Shown: positions 979 through 5,047 of the stretch, in pieces | How positions within the stretch are numbered: position 1 is the first letter of the stretch | Layout: every line of letters begins with the position of its first letter | Assembly: GCA_964522265.1 (NCBI GenBank) | Contig: CAZFVS010000077.1 | Span: 1-5,250 of the forward strand | Direction of reading: 5' to 3' | Length of the DNA stretch: 5,250 bases | Source of the DNA: an uncultured Gammaproteobacteria bacterium | Lineage (GTDB): Bacteria; Patescibacteriota; Microgenomatia; Daviesbacterales; UBA10151 | Program-made: the position numbers and the translations under genes | Notes under the pieces: generated by a model | Told to the model about the DNA's origin: nothing | Databases searched by the model: none | What the model saw: the letters and a program-made list of their open reading frames with translations, nothing else

Positions 979-1022
979 GAAAATTTTTGTTCGATCCGGC
1001 GAAGCCGGAGAGAACTACAATA

Positions 1023-2114
1023 CTAAAATCTTTCTAAAAACTTCAGATCTCCTTTTAAAAATTCCCTGACATCATCAATCCCCCATTTAAGCATTGCCAT
1101 TCTGGCAGGTCCCACACCCCAAGCGATTCCTGAATAAATATTGGGGTCAATACCTCCATTTTCTAAAACCTTTGGGTGGATCATCCCTGCTCCTGCCAGT
1201 TCCAAAAAACCCAAACCACCACAAATTTTGCATCCCTTGCCCTTACAAAAAATGCACTCTCCTAAAATTTTTGCTGAAGGCTCTGTAAACGGATAGTAAC
1301 CCGGTTGCAGCTTGACTTTGATCTCCTGTCCAAACATGTGCTTTAAAAAATATTCGGAAAGATATTGCAGGTTTGCCATACTCAAGCCTTTATCTACATA
1401 GACGATTTCAAATTGATCAAAGGTGTGTTCGTGTCTGGCGTCCAAATTTTCATACCTGAAACATCTCCCAATGCTCATCATTCTGATTGGCGGCTTAAAC
1501 TCTTTCATAATATGAATCTGGGAATTCGAAGTATGGGTCCTCAGTAATAATTTTTCCTCACCATTGTCATTTCGAGCGGAGCGAAGCGGAGTCGAGAAAT
1601 CTCTTGATTTAAGGGACCCCTCAACATATAAGGTATCCCATAAATCTCTGGCAGGGTGTTCCGGCGGGATATTTAAAACCTCAAAATTGTTGTAATCAGT
1701 ATCAATTTGAGGCGCATCATATTGCTGGAAGCCAAGTTTTGAAAAAAGATCAGCGATATCTTTTTCGAAAATTGTAATAGGGTGCAAATGACCTTTTCTT
1801 ACCTTGTCATTTCGAACGGAGCGAGAAATCTCTAGATTTAACTCTTCATTTTCAAGTTTCCTGTATCCCTCCTCTCTTATCTCCTGCCGCCTGTCATTTA
1901 TTGTCTTTTCCAGCTCTTGTTTTGTTTCATTAAACAAAGGTCCAATTTTCTGCAGTTCATCTTTTGGCAGTTTTGGAAACTCCTTTGGCAGCAGGGTAAT
2001 CCTGCCATTTTTCCCGAAAACTTCCAAAAAAATCCCGTCAAGCTCTTGCAAATTTTTAGCTTGTTTGATCTTTTCCAAAATATCTTTTTGAATTTGTTCA
2101 ATCTTCTCTTCCAT
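1023..2114 (-). CDS. pheS: Phenylalanine--tRNA ligase alpha subunit
   Basis: 363-aa ORF on the track. Class II aaRS alpha-subunit blocks are present: HPARDLWDT, LLRTHTS, IGRCFRYE, PGYYPFTEPS, LAGAGMIHP, GIAWGVGPARMAMLKWGIDDVREF. It is immediately followed by pheT. Confidence 0.95.
   Translation of the reverse strand: MEEKIEQIQKDILEKIKQAKNLQELDGIFLEVFGKNGRITLLPKEFPKLPKDELQKIGPLFNETKQELEKTINDRRQEIREEGYRKLENEELNLEISRSVRNDKVRKGHLHPITIFEKDIADLFSKLGFQQYDAPQIDTDYNNFEVLNIPPEHPARDLWDTLYVEGSLKSRDFSTPLRSARNDNGEEKLLLRTHTSNSQIHIMKEFKPPIRMMSIGRCFRYENLDARHEHTFDQFEIVYVDKGLSMANLQYLSEYFLKHMFGQEIKVKLQPGYYPFTEPSAKILGECIFCKGKGCKICGGLGFLELAGAGMIHPKVLENGGIDPNIYSGIAWGVGPARMAMLKWGIDDVREFLKGDLKFLERF
1563..1613 (+). 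repeat. Intragenic hairpin-type repeat copy A (long form), in frame inside pheS (residues 168-184 LKSRDFSTPLRSARNDN)
   Basis: TTGTCATTTCGAGCGGAGCGA-AGCGGAGTCGA-GAAATCTCTTGATTTAA. The left 21 nt match 1804-1824 at 20/21 and the right 17 nt match 1825-1841 at 16/17. The ends form a short inverted repeat (ATTTC...GAAAT). The block is GC-rich relative to the flanking pheS sequence. Confidence 0.85.
1803..1841 (+). repeat. Intragenic hairpin-type repeat copy B (short form), in frame inside pheS (residues 92-104 LNLEISRSVRNDK)
   Basis: TTGTCATTTCGAACGGAGCGA-GAAATCTCTAGATTTAA. It is the same element as copy A but lacks the 11-nt internal unit AGCGGAGTCGA. Confidence 0.85.
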
Positions 2115-2184: not shown

Positions 2185-2215
2185 ATATGAAATGGGCGGC
2201 CATTTATGGCCGCCC
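2185..2215 (-). terminator. Rho-independent terminator after the small ORF and rplT unit
   Basis: The minus strand reads GGGCGGCCA-TAAA-TGGCCGCCC, a 9-bp stem with 8 G:C pairs and a 4-nt loop, followed by ATTTCATATCT. This is the strongest hairpin in the window. The U-tract is only moderate. Confidence 0.7.
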
Positions 2216-2226
2216 AGAAGAAGCAC

Positions 2227-2313
2227 CTATCCGACGCACCCGCTGTTTGCCAGAAAGCCCAGCAAAGCCAATATAATTCCAATGATTACCATTACCCGGA
2301 ATCCGTCCACCAT
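2227..2313 (-). CDS. Hypothetical 28-aa hydrophobic peptide (MVDGFRVMVIIGIILALLGFLANSGCVG), single predicted transmembrane (TM) segment
   Basis: ATG 2313-2311 is preceded by GGAGAG (2326-2321) with a 7-nt spacer. The stop TAG is at 2229-2227, 11 nt before the terminator stem. A sigma70-like promoter lies upstream. The ORF is too short for the ORF track and was found by hand translation. There is no homology evidence. Confidence 0.45.
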   Translation of the reverse strand: MVDGFRVMVIIGIILALLGFLANSGCVG

Positions 2314-2746: not shown

Positions 2747-2749
2747 AAT

Positions 2750-2794
2750 AATTCAAAATTCAAAGGTCTAAATTCAAAATTGCAATTCAAAATT
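2750..2794. repeat. Three exact copies of AATTCAAAATT immediately upstream of the rplT start
   Basis: Copies lie at 2750-2760, 2771-2781 and 2784-2794 (minus-strand reading AATTTTGAATT). The nearest copy ends 3 nt from the rplT ATG. No SD is present. Confidence 0.8.
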
Positions 2795-2820
2795 TAAAAT
2801 TTTCGTAGAAAATTTCAATA

Positions 2821-2848
2821 CTTTTGCCTTTTGATTTTTGACTTTTAA
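2821..2848. repeat. Four tandem degenerate heptamers (CTTTTGC CTTTTGA TTTTTGA CTTTTAA)
   Basis: Read directly on the plus strand. On the minus strand (mRNA sense) it is an A-rich nnCAAAA x4 tract just downstream of a GGGGAAAGGGAGGAG purine run (2856-2870). Confidence 0.5.
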
Positions 2849-3001
2849 CTTTGTTCTCCTCCCTTTCCCCTTACTTTAATAAAATTTAATATCCGCTCGT
2901 GCCAGGCTCCTCTGTTAACCTGGTTAAAATTCCTTGCCCCTTCCGTACCGGACATTGATTTATTAGATTGCCTGAAAAACCGCCTTGTTCTTCCCATATT
3001 T

Positions 3002-3202
3002 TTAAATACCTAACATCCGTTTAAACGATTTTACCATTGATTTATTCAAAAGAATCGGTTCTTTATGGCGTCTGAGTGCTCTGTTTGTTTTGTGGCGTTT
3101 GAGATGTCCTGCCCTTAGCTGATGTGAACGCATAATTTTACCGGTACCGGTAATCTTAACCCTTTTCATTAGTGCCTTCTTTGTTTTGTGCTTGATCTTC
3201 AT
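3002..3202 (-). CDS. rpmI: 50S ribosomal protein L35 (bL35)
   Basis: 66-aa very basic ORF: MKIKHKTKKALMKRVKITGTGKIMRSHQLRAGHLKRHKT.. The L35 pattern K.K..K...KR.K.TG.GK....H....H is present. Its ATG (3202-3200) overlaps the infC TGA (3201-3199) as ATGA. Confidence 0.95.
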   Translation of the reverse strand: MKIKHKTKKALMKRVKITGTGKIMRSHQLRAGHLKRHKTNRALRRHKEPILLNKSMVKSFKRMLGI

Positions 3203-3744
3203 ATTATTGTTTCTTGATTACTTGTTTTAGAACCTCCTTTGCTTTTTCCAATTATCGCCGTAATACTTCTTCCTTCTACTTTTGGTTCACGCTCGATCGT
3301 TATTTTATCACCGAATATCCCAAAAATCTTTTTTAAAAGTTCAAAACCAAATTCCAGATGAGCCATCTCCCTGCCTTTAAACTTTACCCTGAAAAACACC
3401 TTATCTCCTGCGTTTAAAAACTCTTCTGCCCTTTTTAACCTGGTTCGTAAATCATGTTCCGCTATTCTTGGCGATAACCAGATCTCTTTTAGGGAGACAT
3501 CCTTGGCATTCTTCCTGGCAGCCTGTTCCTTCTTACTCTCCTCATACCTGAATTTTTGAAAATCTAAAATTTTGGCTACCGGCGGTTTAATATTCGGGGC
3601 AATCTCCACCAAATCCAAACCCTGTTCATGTGCTTTTCTCAAAGCCTCTTCTTTGCTGATTACTCCAAGTTTGGTGCCATCAGAATCAATTACCAAAAGT
3701 TCCTGGCTTTGAATGTTTAGATTTAGACGATAATATTTACCGAT
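3199..3744 (-). CDS. infC: Translation initiation factor IF-3, probable ATC (AUC) start
   Basis: The track ORF (3199-3696) begins at an internal TTG. The frame stays open upstream to a TAG at 3759-3757 and reads GGKQ-I-GKYYRLNLNIQSQELLVIDSDGTKLGV..., which supplies the conserved IF3 N-terminus (RINxxIRxxEVRLIDxDGxQLG-like). GGAGG (3756-3752) lies 7 nt before ATC 3744-3742. The rest is typical IF3: LDLVEIAPNIKPPVAKILDFQKFRYE...KEIWLSPRIAEHDL..K.....FL..GDKV. Confidence 0.88.
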   Translation of the reverse strand: MGKYYRLNLNIQSQELLVIDSDGTKLGVISKEEALRKAHEQGLDLVEIAPNIKPPVAKILDFQKFRYEESKKEQAARKNAKDVSLKEIWLSPRIAEHDLRTRLKRAEEFLNAGDKVFFRVKFKGREMAHLEFGFELLKKIFGIFGDKITIEREPKVEGRSITAIIGKSKGGSKTSNQETII

Positions 3745-3751
3745 TTGTTTT

Positions 3752-3756
3752 CCTCC
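3752..3756 (-). promoter_or_regulatory. Shine-Dalgarno GGAGG for infC
   Basis: The minus strand reads TAGGGAGGAAAACAAATC. It has the core GGAGG, a 7-nt spacer, then ATC. Confidence 0.7.
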
Positions 3757-3820
3757 CTAAAAAATAGTGGCCAGTCACCAGAGTTTGGAAACCAGTCACA
3801 TCTTTTTAATTTTAGCACAC

Positions 3821-5047
3821 TCACACTTTAGTGGCAATCTCCTGTTTTATTTTATCCAAAAATCCCTCTATATCCTGGTCAGCCAAATTCTCGCCACCCC
3901 TGGTTCTCACCGAGATACTTCCGGACTGCTCTTCCTTGTCTCCTACAATAACCATGTAGGGGATTTTTTGCGTTTGGGCATCCCTGATTTTAGACTGCAT
4001 AGTTTCTGACCTTCCATCAACCTCTACCCTGATCCCTGAGGACTTAAGTTGTTCGAGTAATTTTTGTGCATAATTTATGTGCTTGTCTGAGATGGGTATA
4101 ATTTGTACCTGGATTGGTGAAAGCCAGAGAGGAAATGCCCCCTGAAAATGTTCAGTTAAAATAGCAATGAACCTCTCAAAAGAGCCAAAAATTGCACGAT
4201 GTATCATTGCGGGTTTTTTAGCTTGTCCTTTCTCGTCGATGTATTTCAAATCAAATGCCTCAGGCATATGAAAATCGAGCTGGACTGTTGCCAGCTGCCA
4301 TTCTCTTTCTTGGGCATCCTTTATATGTAAATCAATTTTAGGCCCATAAAAGGCACCATCACCTTTTTTGTCTCCTACTTGAATTCCCTTCTTCTTTATA
4401 GCTTCAGATAATGTTTCTTCTGCCTTATCCCACATTTCATCTGTCCCAGCCCTAGTTTCAGGTCTGGTGGCAAACCTAAATTCAGGTTCAAAGTCTAGCT
4501 TTTTGTAAAACCCTATCATCATATCCAAAATATTCGATACTTCGTCAAAAATTTGATCCTCTCTTGCATAAATATGCGCATCATCCATAGTTAGTTGTCT
4601 GACCCGCAACAGCCCGTTTACCTCTCCTGACTTTTCCCTTCTGTGCAGCCTGCCAATTTCCATCAAACGCAAGGGTAGCTCTTTATAACTTCTTGGTCTA
4701 AACCTATAAAGAATAGTTGACTCAGGACAATTCATGGGTTTTAAGGAATACGAAAGAGTTTTAGACTCGTCATTTTCTTCAGAGAGTACTAAGTTGTACA
4801 TATTATGTGCTCCGAACTTCTCCCAATGTCCGGATTGTTTAAACAACTCACTTTTAACCATGATTGGTGTAGAGGTTTCCAGGTATCCTGCATTTGAAGT
4901 TAATTCACGAATATATTTTTCCAGCTCTTTGAAAATAACCATTCCTTTTGGAAGCCAAAACGGAGCACCCGGGGCAATTTCATCGGTGAAAAAAAGTTCC
5001 ATCTCTTGACCTATTTGTTTATGGTCTTTTAACTTTTTGTCGTCCAT
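3821..5047 (-). CDS. thrS: Threonine--tRNA ligase, catalytic plus anticodon-binding domains only (no N-terminal TGS or editing domains)
   Basis: 408-aa ORF. It aligns from DHKQIGQEMELFF (E. coli RDHRKIGKQLDLYH, roughly residue 240 from memory) to the C-terminus. The Zn-ligand contexts are conserved (KPMNCPE, MDDAHIY, AMIHRAIFGS). Class II motifs and the anticodon-binding domain (PIQVQIIPISDK...IPYMVIVGDKE...ISVRTR) are present. An in-frame TGA at 5089-5087 lies 13 codons upstream of the ATG. Confidence 0.95.
   Translation of the reverse strand: MDDKKLKDHKQIGQEMELFFTDEIAPGAPFWLPKGMVIFKELEKYIRELTSNAGYLETSTPIMVKSELFKQSGHWEKFGAHNMYNLVLSEENDESKTLSYSLKPMNCPESTILYRFRPRSYKELPLRLMEIGRLHRREKSGEVNGLLRVRQLTMDDAHIYAREDQIFDEVSNILDMMIGFYKKLDFEPEFRFATRPETRAGTDEMWDKAEETLSEAIKKKGIQVGDKKGDGAFYGPKIDLHIKDAQEREWQLATVQLDFHMPEAFDLKYIDEKGQAKKPAMIHRAIFGSFERFIAILTEHFQGAFPLWLSPIQVQIIPISDKHINYAQKLLEQLKSSGIRVEVDGRSETMQSKIRDAQTQKIPYMVIVGDKEEQSGSISVRTRGGENLADQDIEGFLDKIKQEIATKV

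Follow-up and report, generated by a model that had tools for sequence, protein, structure and literature searches.

The window analysed here is a whole contig of 5,250 bp from a metagenome-assembled genome, in which the genes thrS-infC-rpmI-rplT-pheS-pheT follow one another in canonical order, the same as in the 21-kb relative L121. The pheS gene (1023-2114, minus strand) codes for a full-length, uninterrupted phenylalanyl-tRNA synthetase alpha subunit of 363 aa, which carries the Pfam domains Phe_tRNA-synt_N (residues 20-82, E 5e-13) and tRNA-synt_2d (residues 100-363, E 4e-82) and matches PheS alpha chains of the PDB at E 1e-72. Its nearest orthologs belong to Candidatus Daviesbacteria, and an exact look-up of the protein found it on record from no other contig. 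The gene hosts two copies, A and B, of a short hairpin repeat, and a probable third, degenerate one lies within the same 5.25 kb.

On the plus strand, TTGTCATTTCGAGCGGAGCGA at 1564-1584 is identical to 1804-1824 at 20 of 21 positions, and GAAATCTCTTGATTTAA at 1596-1612 to 1825-1841 at 16 of 17. No match of the first kind appeared in 200 dinucleotide-preserving shuffles; for the second pair, the shuffles gave a mean of 0.07 matches and none had two or more. The repeat pair, pointed out in a preliminary description of this DNA together with its ATTTC...GAAAT inverted termini, is thus real and beyond chance, and the termini are present in both copies. Copy A (core 1565-1603, plus strand) is a long form (38 nt plus tag) of a TGTC-tagged hairpin. 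It consists of the tag TGTC (1565-1568), the 5' stem ATTTC (1569-1573), GA (1574-1575), an inner region GCGGA-GC-GAA-GC-GGAGTC (1576-1593), GA (1594-1595), the 3' stem GAAAT (1596-1600) and the tail CTC (1601-1603). Its tagged strand is antisense to pheS, and a Kiritimatiellae MAG (locus L085) contains a copy with exactly the same 38-mer, GTCATTTCGAGCGGAGCGAAGCGGAGTCGAGAAATCTC. Copy B (core 1805-1832, plus strand) is a short form (27 nt plus tag) in the same orientation, with the tag TGTC at 1805-1808, the stem ATTTC/GAAAT at 1809-1813 and 1825-1829, GA at 1814-1815 and 1823-1824, the inner sequence ACGGAGC at 1816-1822 and the tail CTC at 1830-1832; the loop of copy A is 11 nt longer. In the inner part of copy B, a covarying pair that is G-C in the consensus is replaced by an A·C mismatch, and copy B may be decaying.

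Both copies are read through without a stop, as residues 168-184 (copy A) and 92-104 (copy B) of the 363-aa frame, exactly as had been proposed. The reading-frame translations are LKSRDFSTPLRSARNDN for copy A, with the peptide ...DFSTPLRSARND... at residues about 171-184, and (LNL)EISRSVRNDK for copy B, with EISRSVRND at residues 95-103. Read across the inserts from the intact frame, the peptides are ...SLKSRDFSTPLR... and ...EISRSVR..., respectively. Judging from the intact reading frames, the inserts are presumably translated. Their description as GC-rich islands holds for the cores (55% in A and 48% in B, against 39% for pheS) and fails for the whole copy B interval 1804-1841, which has 37%. 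The probable third hairpin is found at 989-1015 (plus strand) in the pheS-pheT spacer. It reads GTTC-GA-TCCGG-CGAA-CCGGA-GA-GAAC, is devoid of the TGTC tag and has a folding z of -2.1 to -2.2; from its sequence it is probably of the same kind as copies A and B. Its 20-mer CGATCCGGCGAAGCCGGAGA (992-1011) is identical to the loop of the element inserted in PheS of the closest relative (L121, position 10292, same tagged strand), and the spacer is 77 nt long here versus 18 nt in L121.

The likeness of the two copies extends beyond the unit on the 3' side. The 9 nt after copy A (1604-1612, plus strand; TTGATTTAA) share 8 of 9 positions with the sequence after copy B (1833-1841, plus strand; TAGATTTAA), lie outside the family consensus and are able to pair with the GAAATC arm (AAATC-TCTT-GATTT). 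The sequence after copy B is the complement of native PheS codons for Leu-Asn-Leu (residues 92-94); L[D/N]L is kept in orthologs that carry no insert, and ortholog L122 has AAGATTTAA there. This stretch is therefore native and not part of the element. GATTT follows 1.4% of elements versus 2.4% of control positions, so that the extension is not a family feature. An extended element that would include it was discarded as well: a metagenome scan for CGAGAAATCTCTWGATTTAA returned three matches, of which one was a real element, in which TAA serves an unrelated gene as stop codon. Likeness of the 5' flanks (TTTTTCCTCACC vs CCTTTTCTTACC) was also discarded, since both sites have native Lys/Glu/Arg codons there. 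The presence in copy A of 9 nt of the native flank of copy B suggests that one copy served as template for the other, or that the two had a common source, and speaks against independent arrival.

The positions of both inserts in the protein were examined in an alignment of this PheS with 119 Daviesbacteria orthologs (120 in all). Copy A adds about 13 residues that no other protein of this set has, in a loop of 26 residues where the mode is 13. Its placement in a variable loop was borne out by the PDB alignments, in which the P. aeruginosa and S. haemolyticus proteins have a gap opposite residues 167-187 and the T. thermophilus protein has a natural insertion opposite copy A. Copy B had been placed at the junction between the coiled coil and the catalytic core, and it does fall in the linker that joins them, between the two Pfam domains. 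In an AF2 model, both inserts lie in coil with pLDDT <60. The expectation that the two segments would be lineage-specific insertions was confirmed for copy A. Copy B sits in a length-variable linker (17 residues, against the usual 13-15), and the net gain of only about three residues means that native residues were replaced as well as residues added.

The linker is short in 95 of the 120 orthologs and contains element-derived peptides in about 15. Fitch parsimony on an NJ tree gave 11 changes at this site, about 10 once one false-positive carrier is removed. The DNA at the site, checked in six orthologs, showed tagged hairpins with differing stems (TTTC, TTGC, TCCC, TTCTG) and the tag always antisense; variants oriented as copy B are found in orthologs P0002, P0074, P0010, P0026 and P0039. 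From these comparisons, the PheS linker appears to be a recurrent, orientation-biased landing site for such hairpins, which is a new point. An insertion that is a translated hairpin was also seen in MurT of the closest relative.

Across the family, the unit read on the plus strand is 27-38 nt long. An unpaired 5' tag (T/C)GTC precedes an outer stem of 5 bp, in which pairs 1 and 2 are A-T and T-A and pairs 3-5 vary with compensation. Inside the stem come tandem G·A mismatches and then one or two Watson-Crick pairs closing a GNA triloop, which in the long forms is opened for an extra, covarying hairpin; the unpaired 3' tail is CTC. Stem pair 1 was A-T in 70 of 76 instances and pair 2 T-A in 68 of 76; the X-Y pair was G-C in 40, A-T in 15 and C-G in 13, with 8 non-pairs. 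There were 22 distinct outer-stem types, and the inner hairpin occurred as GC/GC, AC/GT, GCC/GGC, GGC/GCC and GGCCGCC/GGCGGCC. These compensatory changes support the predicted hairpin. Nearest-neighbour folding of copies A and B, on both strands and as RNA or DNA, was no better than that of shuffles (z +0.4 to +1.8); with the folding energy not significant, the case for a hairpin rests on family covariation.

The tags were TGTC in 40 and CGTC in 15 of 57 TTTC-type instances, for which the CTC tail was fixed by the search pattern. When instances were anchored on the loop only, with tag and tail left free, 31 of 96 non-TTTC instances had flanks complementary at five of five positions; 26 of these 31 were tagged (TGTC 19, CGTC 7) and 16 had the CTC tail. 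Alignment A3 of the family shows an invariant GTC and, after the stem, a C that is at least 90% conserved; copies A and B share these bases. Two readings of the GA-rich core were rejected by inspection: a hammerhead, because the CUGANGA box is missing, and a K-turn, because no 3-nt bulge lies ahead of the G·A pairs. An Rfam scan of the window with E up to 1 returned no family at or near the repeats, and a literature search with GTCATTTCGAG, CGAGCGAAGCGAG, FARNDK and similar strings found nothing relevant.

A pattern scan with GTCATTTCGA-N4-30-CGAGAAATCTC, in which the loop was unconstrained, turned up at least 120 loci from at least 14 phyla, against a chance expectation estimated at about 7; the flanks of these loci are unrelated. 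The loops of these loci follow the consensus GCGNAG(T) although the pattern had left them free. The elements are scarce in long ORFs, 32% of them lying in ORFs of at least 600 nt versus 82% of random positions, and they form inverted pairs in L121 (107-182 and 8165-8216) and several other loci. A BLAST search of copy A against 50,697 phage records returned one marginal partial match and an IMG/VR scan five loci; phages therefore do not seem to be a major carrier.

Clustering of 2,297 ORFs from about 125 loci revealed positional linkage only for a family of small GIY-YIG genes, and no recurrent transposase family was present among these ORFs. The largest neighbour clusters were ABC-transporter-like and sensor-kinase-like on sequence inspection, and were taken as generic families. 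Among the element-first loci listed, five had small GIY-YIG ORFs, four of which (L116, L085, L106 and L110) were bracketed by or abutted tagged hairpins. In the protein-first loci (L132-L136, from four CPR genomes), tagged hairpins lay within 100 nt in four of four cases and on both sides in three of four, one copy being of the TTTC type. The GIY-YIG proteins found all carry PF01541. One from CPR is 44% identical (E 1e-27) to an ORF of about 94 aa in N. gonorrhoeae that is itself flanked by CGTCATTCCCGC..GGGAATC repeats. Searches with the GIY-YIG protein returned no specific family in NCBIfam and no solved Ssn structure in the PDB. No GIY-YIG ORF was found in the window or in L121. Ssn-like genes in CPR and other genomes are thus bracketed by these hairpins, a link that was reached independently of the 2025 paper discussed below.

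Two published descriptions bear on the identity of the unit. The CGTC-tagged REP superfamily, with families CGTC-1 to -4, was defined by Di Nocera, De Gregorio and Rocco (BMC Genomics 2013, PMC3733652), who reported intragenic copies, tRNA synthetase genes included. The published families have continuous stems of 8-9 bp, loops of 4-5 nt and a CCA tail, and occur in 5 phyla, mainly Alphaproteobacteria (PMC3733652). The units described here resemble them in the 5' tag, the stem starting with A-T/T-A and the in-frame intragenic copies; inverted pairs, frequent in the published families, are seen in L121 and several other loci. Both window copies have TGTC, one of the variants (with CCTC) of the CGTC tag, and ATTTC/GAAAT as the stem start. 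The stem and loop differ, with nine stacked positions of which two are G·A mismatches, and loops of 3 nt or expanded by 4-30 nt; the stem is followed by a 3-nt tail, but this reads CTC instead of CCA, and the units occur in at least 14 phyla, CPR included. By its anatomy, the present unit would be a structural variant of the published CGTC families. Neisseria dRS3 also belongs to the CGTC/TGTC-tagged REP superfamily.

Ssn-related motifs (SRM), with the Neisseria Transformation Sequence NTS CGTCATTCCCGCGMAVGCGGGAATCYRG as type, were described by Chenal et al. (Nat Commun 2025, PMC11893778) together with their partners Ssn/SsnA, GIY-YIG ssDNA nucleases of cd10448. The Neisseria and Wolbachia homologs are single-domain proteins of about 95 aa that bind the hairpin on the single-stranded tagged strand; Ssn cuts a few nt 5' of the tag and does not act on the complementary strand, duplex DNA or RNA. 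The GTC 5' of the palindrome and the C 3' of it are critical for cleavage and binding, and ssn genes are flanked by such hairpins in an IS-like layout. NTS are rarely (2%) intragenic, and the main text makes no mention of Patescibacteria (PMC11893778). Like SRM, the present units are directional hairpins in the size range of 20-50 nt, with GTC just 5' of a palindrome starting with AT and C directly 3' of it, as in both copies A and B. Like SRM, they are spread over many phyla, are mostly intergenic and bracket single-domain GIY-YIG genes of about 95 aa homologous to SsnA. They differ in their stem, in which only five Watson-Crick pairs precede the tandem G·A mismatches and a mini-hairpin with a GNA loop, and in their tail, which is CTC instead of CYRG. 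The CPR loci are arranged as [tag...tail]-gene-[tail...tag], whereas in the gonococcal locus the tags face the gene. The published SRM pattern, HGTCWYN(0-2)YYVSBRHN(0-5)WNVSBRGN(0-2)RNCYNB, which as a regular expression matches the NTS control, has no match in the window, in neither copy on either strand, and matched none of 150 TTTC-type instances. The G·A-mismatch subclass thus escapes this pattern, which is a second new point.

The preliminary description had likened the inserts to Rickettsia palindromic elements (RPE), and the analogy proved apt, as RPE-4 and RPE-6 are assigned to CGTC families (PMC3733652). RPEs lie in frame in protein-coding genes (Ogata et al. 2000, 2002, as cited in PMC3733652). 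The shared traits are a palindromic unit inserted in frame, in essential genes among others, and (here presumably) translated at positions compatible with function; RPEs are confined to Rickettsia, in contrast with the present units of 27-38 nt, which are near-identical across phyla. RPE-1, at about 100-150 bp, is longer than these units. Taken together, copies A and B very probably belong to the CGTC/TGTC-tagged REP superfamily, alias Ssn-related motifs, and represent a new example of a known phenomenon. Their presence in pheS leaves this classification unchanged; in-frame REP insertions in essential genes, including those for aminoacyl-tRNA synthetases, have already been documented.

Of the label REP/MITE-like that the segments had received, the REP half agrees with the tagged-superfamily anatomy and the at least 120 loci, and the MITE half is the weaker one, as neither terminal inverted repeats of the transposon kind nor a target-site duplication is present. 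A conventional MITE, that is a deletion derivative of a DDE-type IS with terminal inverted repeats and target-site duplications, could be imagined from the inverted termini and from copies that are short, dispersed and of non-coding origin; it is made highly improbable by a single hairpin of 27-38 nt whose tag and tail leave its ends asymmetric, and by flanks free of duplication and of any conserved target beyond T/C at position -1. We give equally little credence to classical GTAG-type REPs/REPINs mobilised by RAYT, an IS200/IS605-like Y1 HUH transposase (Nunvar 2010; Bertels and Rainey 2011; Ton-Hoang 2012). The logic is the same, with a short 5'-tagged hairpin, mostly intergenic and in inverted pairs with occasional intragenic copies, recognition of ssDNA by a small nuclease and a nuclease gene flanked by repeats. 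However, the tag is TGTC or CGTC in 55 of 57 TTTC-type and 26 of 31 other instances instead of GTAG, the linked neighbour in about 125 loci devoid of a recurrent transposase is a small GIY-YIG gene, not an HUH Y1 transposase, and no RAYT flanked by CGTC units was reported in PMC3733652.

The remaining alternatives concern the gene and the assembly. That the segments are kept for pheS itself, as a regulatory structure of the mRNA or an adaptive peptide of PheRS, could be argued from a site B that is filled in about one ortholog in eight, in one orientation wherever checked, and that in other orthologs (P0047) holds an untagged palindrome. We nevertheless regard this as improbable: shuffled sequences fold as well as the mRNA-sense strand of either copy, the peptides vary in sequence and frame across orthologs, most orthologs manage with a short linker, and the unit is elsewhere mostly intergenic or in unrelated genes. 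Chimeric joins at a short repeat would be conceivable in so short a contig of a metagenome-assembled genome, but the ORF is intact across both copies, the gene order is that of L121, and in-frame elements occupy the same PheS site in independent assemblies from other samples, so that an artefact is extremely improbable. Ordinary coding sequence, or duplication of a protein motif, would account for both copies ending in R-N-D-(N/K). Their 5' halves are read in different frames (LKSRDFS vs LNLEISRS), however, and the similarity is thus one of DNA and not of protein; copy A is absent from orthologs, and at least 14 other phyla have the same DNA, for the most part outside genes. This reading is refuted by the difference in frame together with the copies in other phyla, and we consider its probability negligible.

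Under the preferred classification as tagged REPs, copies A and B would be two in-frame insertions of a structured repeat of 27-38 nt, carried as passengers in pheS. Of the six frames of the unit over both strands, three are open. Two of these lie on the complementary strand, which here codes for PheS, and survival of an insertion would depend on entry in either of them. The repeat would also have to land in a loop or linker tolerant of a change in length, and the mRNA would then hold the pyrimidine-rich, non-folding complement. Given the IS-like layout of ssn genes, repeats of the superfamily may spread with or through the Ssn nuclease. A stronger version, in which the PheS linker truly attracts Ssn-related hairpins in a strand-specific way and is more than a tolerant loop, seems to us rather doubtful. 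It draws on the roughly 10 independent gains or replacements in 120 orthologs, the single orientation of the six copies (6/6) checked at the DNA level, and the 9 nt of 3' flank of copy B found with copy A. One possible route to such a site would be one-ended, template-directed copying from an existing copy, reading into the flanking DNA and coupled to Ssn cutting of one strand during replication.

The complementary strand of the unit reads EISR(S/F)ARND in one frame, which explains the ...ARNDK peptides that the preliminary description mentioned for many hypothetical proteins. The peptides EISRFARND(K/G), SFRAKREIS and ...LEMT in 'hypothetical proteins' of metagenomic bins can be read as hairpin translations, and odd insertions in CPR housekeeping proteins, such as PheS here and MurT in the closest relative, as the same hairpin translated. 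Since the published pattern misses a subclass present in at least 14 phyla, Patescibacteria included, SRM counts of genomes are probably underestimates. CPR Ssn proteins with new specificities would be candidates for ssDNA tools of the kind proposed in PMC11893778. If the landing-site reading were true, it would provide the first comparative evidence on how these repeats are copied, and the mobility of CGTC/SRM repeats would become testable. For the organism itself, the two inserts place a pair of predicted ssDNA cleavage sites on the template strand of an essential gene. Should a cognate nuclease occur alongside them, replication, repair and the uptake of DNA may be affected, in organisms believed to rely on scavenged DNA.

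Two copies of a hairpin-type repeat are read in frame within pheS of the window, and the preliminary description, which had taken them for elements akin to the Rickettsia palindromic elements (RPEs) in an essential gene, was essentially right in its interpretation. The near-identical segment pairs that it reported are present, with one mismatch each. The first repeat pattern found no match in 200 dinucleotide-preserving shuffles; the second had a shuffle mean of 0.07 and in no shuffle reached two matches. Copy A (1564-1612) corresponds to copy B (1804-1841) with a loop longer by 11 bases, and both are indeed translated through, as residues 168-184 (A) and 92-104 (B). Their promoter-proximal halves are read in different frames (LKSRDFS versus LNLEISRS), so that the identity is one of DNA, and the 11-nt difference in length restores a common frame for the ending RND(N/K). 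The description of GC-rich islands holds for the cores (55% and 48%, against 39% for pheS) and fails beyond them. Neither strand of either copy, whether taken as RNA or as DNA, folded better than shuffled sequence. In the pheS-pheT spacer a probable third hairpin, untagged, is found (989-1015); a 20-mer of it recurs in the insert that the closest relative has in its PheS.

The window is a complete contig of 5,250 bp, and its genes all lie on the minus strand in canonical order: thrS (3821-5047), infC (about 3199-3750), rpmI (3002-3202), rplT (2399-2746), pheS (1023-2114), coding for a full-length protein, and the 5' part of pheT (1-945). PheS carries the Pfam domains tRNA-synt_2d (E 4e-82) and Phe_tRNA-synt_N (E 5e-13), matches PheS alpha chains in the PDB at E 1e-72 and has its closest relatives in Candidatus Daviesbacteria (CPR/Patescibacteria), with a top identity of 73%. 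We aligned it with 119 Daviesbacteria orthologs (120 sequences in all). The HPARDLWDTLY-LLLRTHTS loop has 26 residues in the window and 13 in 70 sequences. Copy A lies in a variable loop, as proposed: its peptide occurs in none of the 119 other sequences, PheS of P. aeruginosa and S. haemolyticus has nothing opposite residues 167-187, and that of T. thermophilus has an unrelated insertion of its own opposite copy A. The placing of copy B at the junction of the N-terminal part and the core also stands, since it falls between the two Pfam domains. This linker (site B) measures 13-15 residues in 95 of the 120 orthologs and 17 in the window; copy B consequently displaced some native residues besides adding others. 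In the AF2 model (mean pLDDT 81) both inserts are in coil, with pLDDT below 50 for segments 101-104 and 160-194 and an average of about 57 for residues 91-110.

Tell-tale peptides occur at site B in about 15 orthologs (IASPASPDRNDG, IATPAARNDEG, SSGPKSGMT, QRQSRMT, PRNDN and others); P0112 was a false positive among these signature carriers. Fitch parsimony on an NJ tree, with both insert sites left out, gave 11 changes for site-B inserts and a root without them. The DNA of the orthologs shows that their site-B inserts are of one kind with the element of the window and differ from it in their stems: GTCATTGCGATCCGGCGAAGCCGGAGAAGCAATCTC in P0002, GTCATTGCGAGGCGAAGCCGTGGCAATCTC in P0074 (which also has a partial copy), GTCATCCCGGACTTAGGTCCCGAGGATC in P0010, CGTCATTGCGAGCCGCAGGCGTAGCAATCTT in P0026 and TGTCATTCTG...CAGAATCTA in P0039. 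Together with copy B this makes six elements, all with the tag on the strand antisense to pheS. The ortholog P0047 (locus L139) has at site B an untagged GC-rich palindrome, CGCTTCGC-CT-GCGAAGCG, giving the peptide PLRLRSEAS, and many near-baseline orthologs show palindrome-like translated peptides there (LQPSRLQA, LQGNALEA, LPGVAWEA). Hairpin DNA of several kinds may be drawn to this linker.

The locus of the closest relative, L121, carries an in-frame tail-to-tail pair of TTGC-type tagged hairpins (107-182) in the gene for the MurT C-terminal domain (1-416), translated as SASLRKHEVSKQSNLERLPRRYAPRNDV; murT is a second essential-type gene in Daviesbacteria with such inserts. The thrS-infC spacer of L121 contains a back-to-back tagged pair (8165-8216), GTCATCCTGAGCAAAGCGAAGGAT / GTCATTCTGAACTTAGTGAAGAAT, whereas that of the window (3751-3820) has none, which provides a comparison of filled and empty sites between close relatives. 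Other features of the two loci deserve mention. ThrRS is short (408 aa in the window; 417 aa in L121, 6874-8127), with only tRNA-synt_2b and HGTP_anticodon on record; the N-terminal TGS/editing region that bacterial ThrRS typically has seems to be missing. After a TAG stop the infC frame (3700-3760, minus strand; L121 8240-8330) stays open through GGKQ-IGKYYRLNLNIQSQELLVIDSDG and has no ATG, GTG or TTG ahead of an internal TTG, and a GGGAGG Shine-Dalgarno sequence lies 7 nt upstream of an ATC; initiation seems to take place at a non-canonical codon. About 85 nt (about AGGGAGGAAAAC to GGCAC) are nearly identical in window and L121, against 73% identity for PheS. IF3 is known to regulate its own synthesis by way of an unusual start codon, and these features are consistent with that. 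The rplT-pheS spacer contains a 28-codon ORF (2227-2313, minus strand; MVDGFRVMVIIGIILALLGFLANSGCVG) with a good Shine-Dalgarno sequence and a hydrophobic product. A perfect 8-bp GC hairpin, GGGCGGCC-ATTTAT-GGCCGCCC (2194-2215, minus strand), follows this ORF, the position of which is taken in L121 by an unrelated 120-aa ORF. The unusually long rpmI-rplT spacer (2747-3001, 255 nt) includes TTCAAAAT-like units that form an AT-rich run (about 2752-2805), as well as a 50-codon ORF (2845-2997, minus strand), in the place of which L121 has a 58-aa ORF.

A scan with GTCATTTCGA-N4-30-CGAGAAATCTC, one genome per species, returned at least 120 loci, against an estimated chance expectation of about 7. 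The matches listed include isolates of Pedobacter, Flavobacterium, Polaribacter and Luteimonas, and MAGs of Clostridia, Bacteroidota, Chloroflexota, Planctomycetota, Verrucomicrobiota/Kiritimatiellia, Spirochaetota, Omnitrophota, Bdellovibrionota, delta-, alpha- and gammaproteobacteria, Acidobacteriota, Deinococcota, Coriobacteriia and Patescibacteria. Among these listed matches the flanks are unrelated apart from position -1 (T 81%, C 17%), and the middle, left free by the pattern, follows a modular consensus: GCGNAG or GCGNAGT in short forms, GCGNA-[hairpin]-GNAGT in long ones. Inner stems of long forms are GC/GC, AC/GT, GCC/GGC, GGC/GCC, GGCCC/GGGCC or GGCCGCC/GGCGGCC. The 38-mer of copy A recurs unchanged in L085, a Kiritimatiellae MAG. 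A search anchored on the loop only recovered other stems (ATTCC/GGAAT, ATCTC/GAGAT, ATCCT/AGGAT, ATGTC/GACAT and others); of these 31 instances, 26 had a TGTC or CGTC tag and 16 a CTC tail. The pair directly inside the tandem G·A is G-C in 40 cases, A-T in 15, C-G in 13 and a non-pair in 8; copy B has a rare A·C mismatch there. The element is a directional tagged hairpin: (T/C)GTC, AT-NNN, G·A/A·G, a GC-GNA-GC core, NNN'-AT and CTC. Stops are absent from three to five of its six reading frames. ORFs of 600 nt or more contain about one-third of copies, versus 82% of random positions. Rfam had no match for the repeats. In Flavivirga rizhaonensis (L025, 2400-3200) a non-coding tandem array of ~235-bp units bears one long-loop tagged hairpin with the ATTTC/GAAAT stem (TTTC-type) per unit, and a GIY-YIG ORF lies at a distance of ~1 kb; L001, L037, L046 and L102 have similar arrays with a period of 200-300 bp.

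Clustering of all ORFs of the element-selected loci left a small GIY-YIG protein as the sole family positionally tied to the element, in five loci among the matches listed. In four of them the tagged hairpin abuts the gene or stands on each side: L116, L085 and L110 have the layout [tag..tail]-gene-[tail..tag], and in L106 a copy lies 6 nt past the stop. A second set, chosen by the protein alone from four CPR genomes (Falkowbacteria, Parcubacteria, a Patescibacteria-group MAG and Kerfeldbacteria), had tagged hairpins no more than 100 nt from the gene in 4/4 and on both sides in 3/4, including a TTTC-type copy 13 nt upstream in Parcubacteria. The CPR protein shares 44% identity (E 1e-27) with a ~94-aa N. 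gonorrhoeae ORF with CCCGTCATTCCCGCTCAGGCGGGAATCC directly after it and an inverted copy before; this ORF fits ssnA as described in PMC11893778. Tags point outward in the CPR and Bacteroidales loci (L110, L116, L132-L134) and face the gene in the gonococcal locus (L142). With cleavage 5' of the tag, the outward layout would free the whole unit, the facing layout just the gene.

Searches of the literature by sequence strings found nothing on these repeats; topic searches did find relevant papers. Di Nocera et al. 2013 (PMC3733652) defined a superfamily of CGTC-tagged REPs with a 3-nt tail, common inverted dimers, in-frame copies inside genes, including those for tRNA synthetases, and no known transposase; Neisseria dRS3 and Rickettsia RPE-4 and RPE-6 belong to it. 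According to Chenal et al. 2025 (PMC11893778), the Neisseria motif NTS and related Ssn-related motifs (SRMs) flank genes for 94-aa single-domain GIY-YIG proteins (Ssn, cd10448). Ssn binds the tagged strand only as ssDNA and cuts it a few nucleotides upstream. Cutting depends critically on the three bases 5' of the palindrome, binding on the C directly 3' of it. The hairpin class described here shares these determinants and is likewise associated with such genes, CPR included. The published degenerate SRM pattern recognises NTS; the G·A interruption makes it miss both window copies and all of the 150 TTTC-type instances.

Ssn homologs were shown by others to cut ssDNA beside their hairpins (PMC11893778). 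A cognate nuclease presumably exists in the genome of the window, and both copies would have come to pheS by whatever process spreads such repeats, persisting through open frames, tolerant loops and an orientation that keeps the mRNA unstructured. The sequences 3' of copies A and B (TTGATTTAA and TAGATTTAA) share a motif that is not a family feature among element instances and has just one other instance in JGI metagenomes. After copy B these bases are native Leu-Asn-Leu codons, found also in insert-free orthologs; after copy A they are extra and in a different frame. This suggests that A was templated from B, or both from a common source. The canonical long core of A speaks against a simple duplication.

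The phenomenon itself is already documented, through in-frame REP/RPE insertions, the CGTC superfamily and SRMs. What is new is modest: the occurrence in CPR, a G·A-mismatch subclass missed by current SRM searches, and the PheS linker as a recurrent, orientation-biased site. Genome surveys with the 2025 SRM pattern probably undercount the taxa that bear SRMs.
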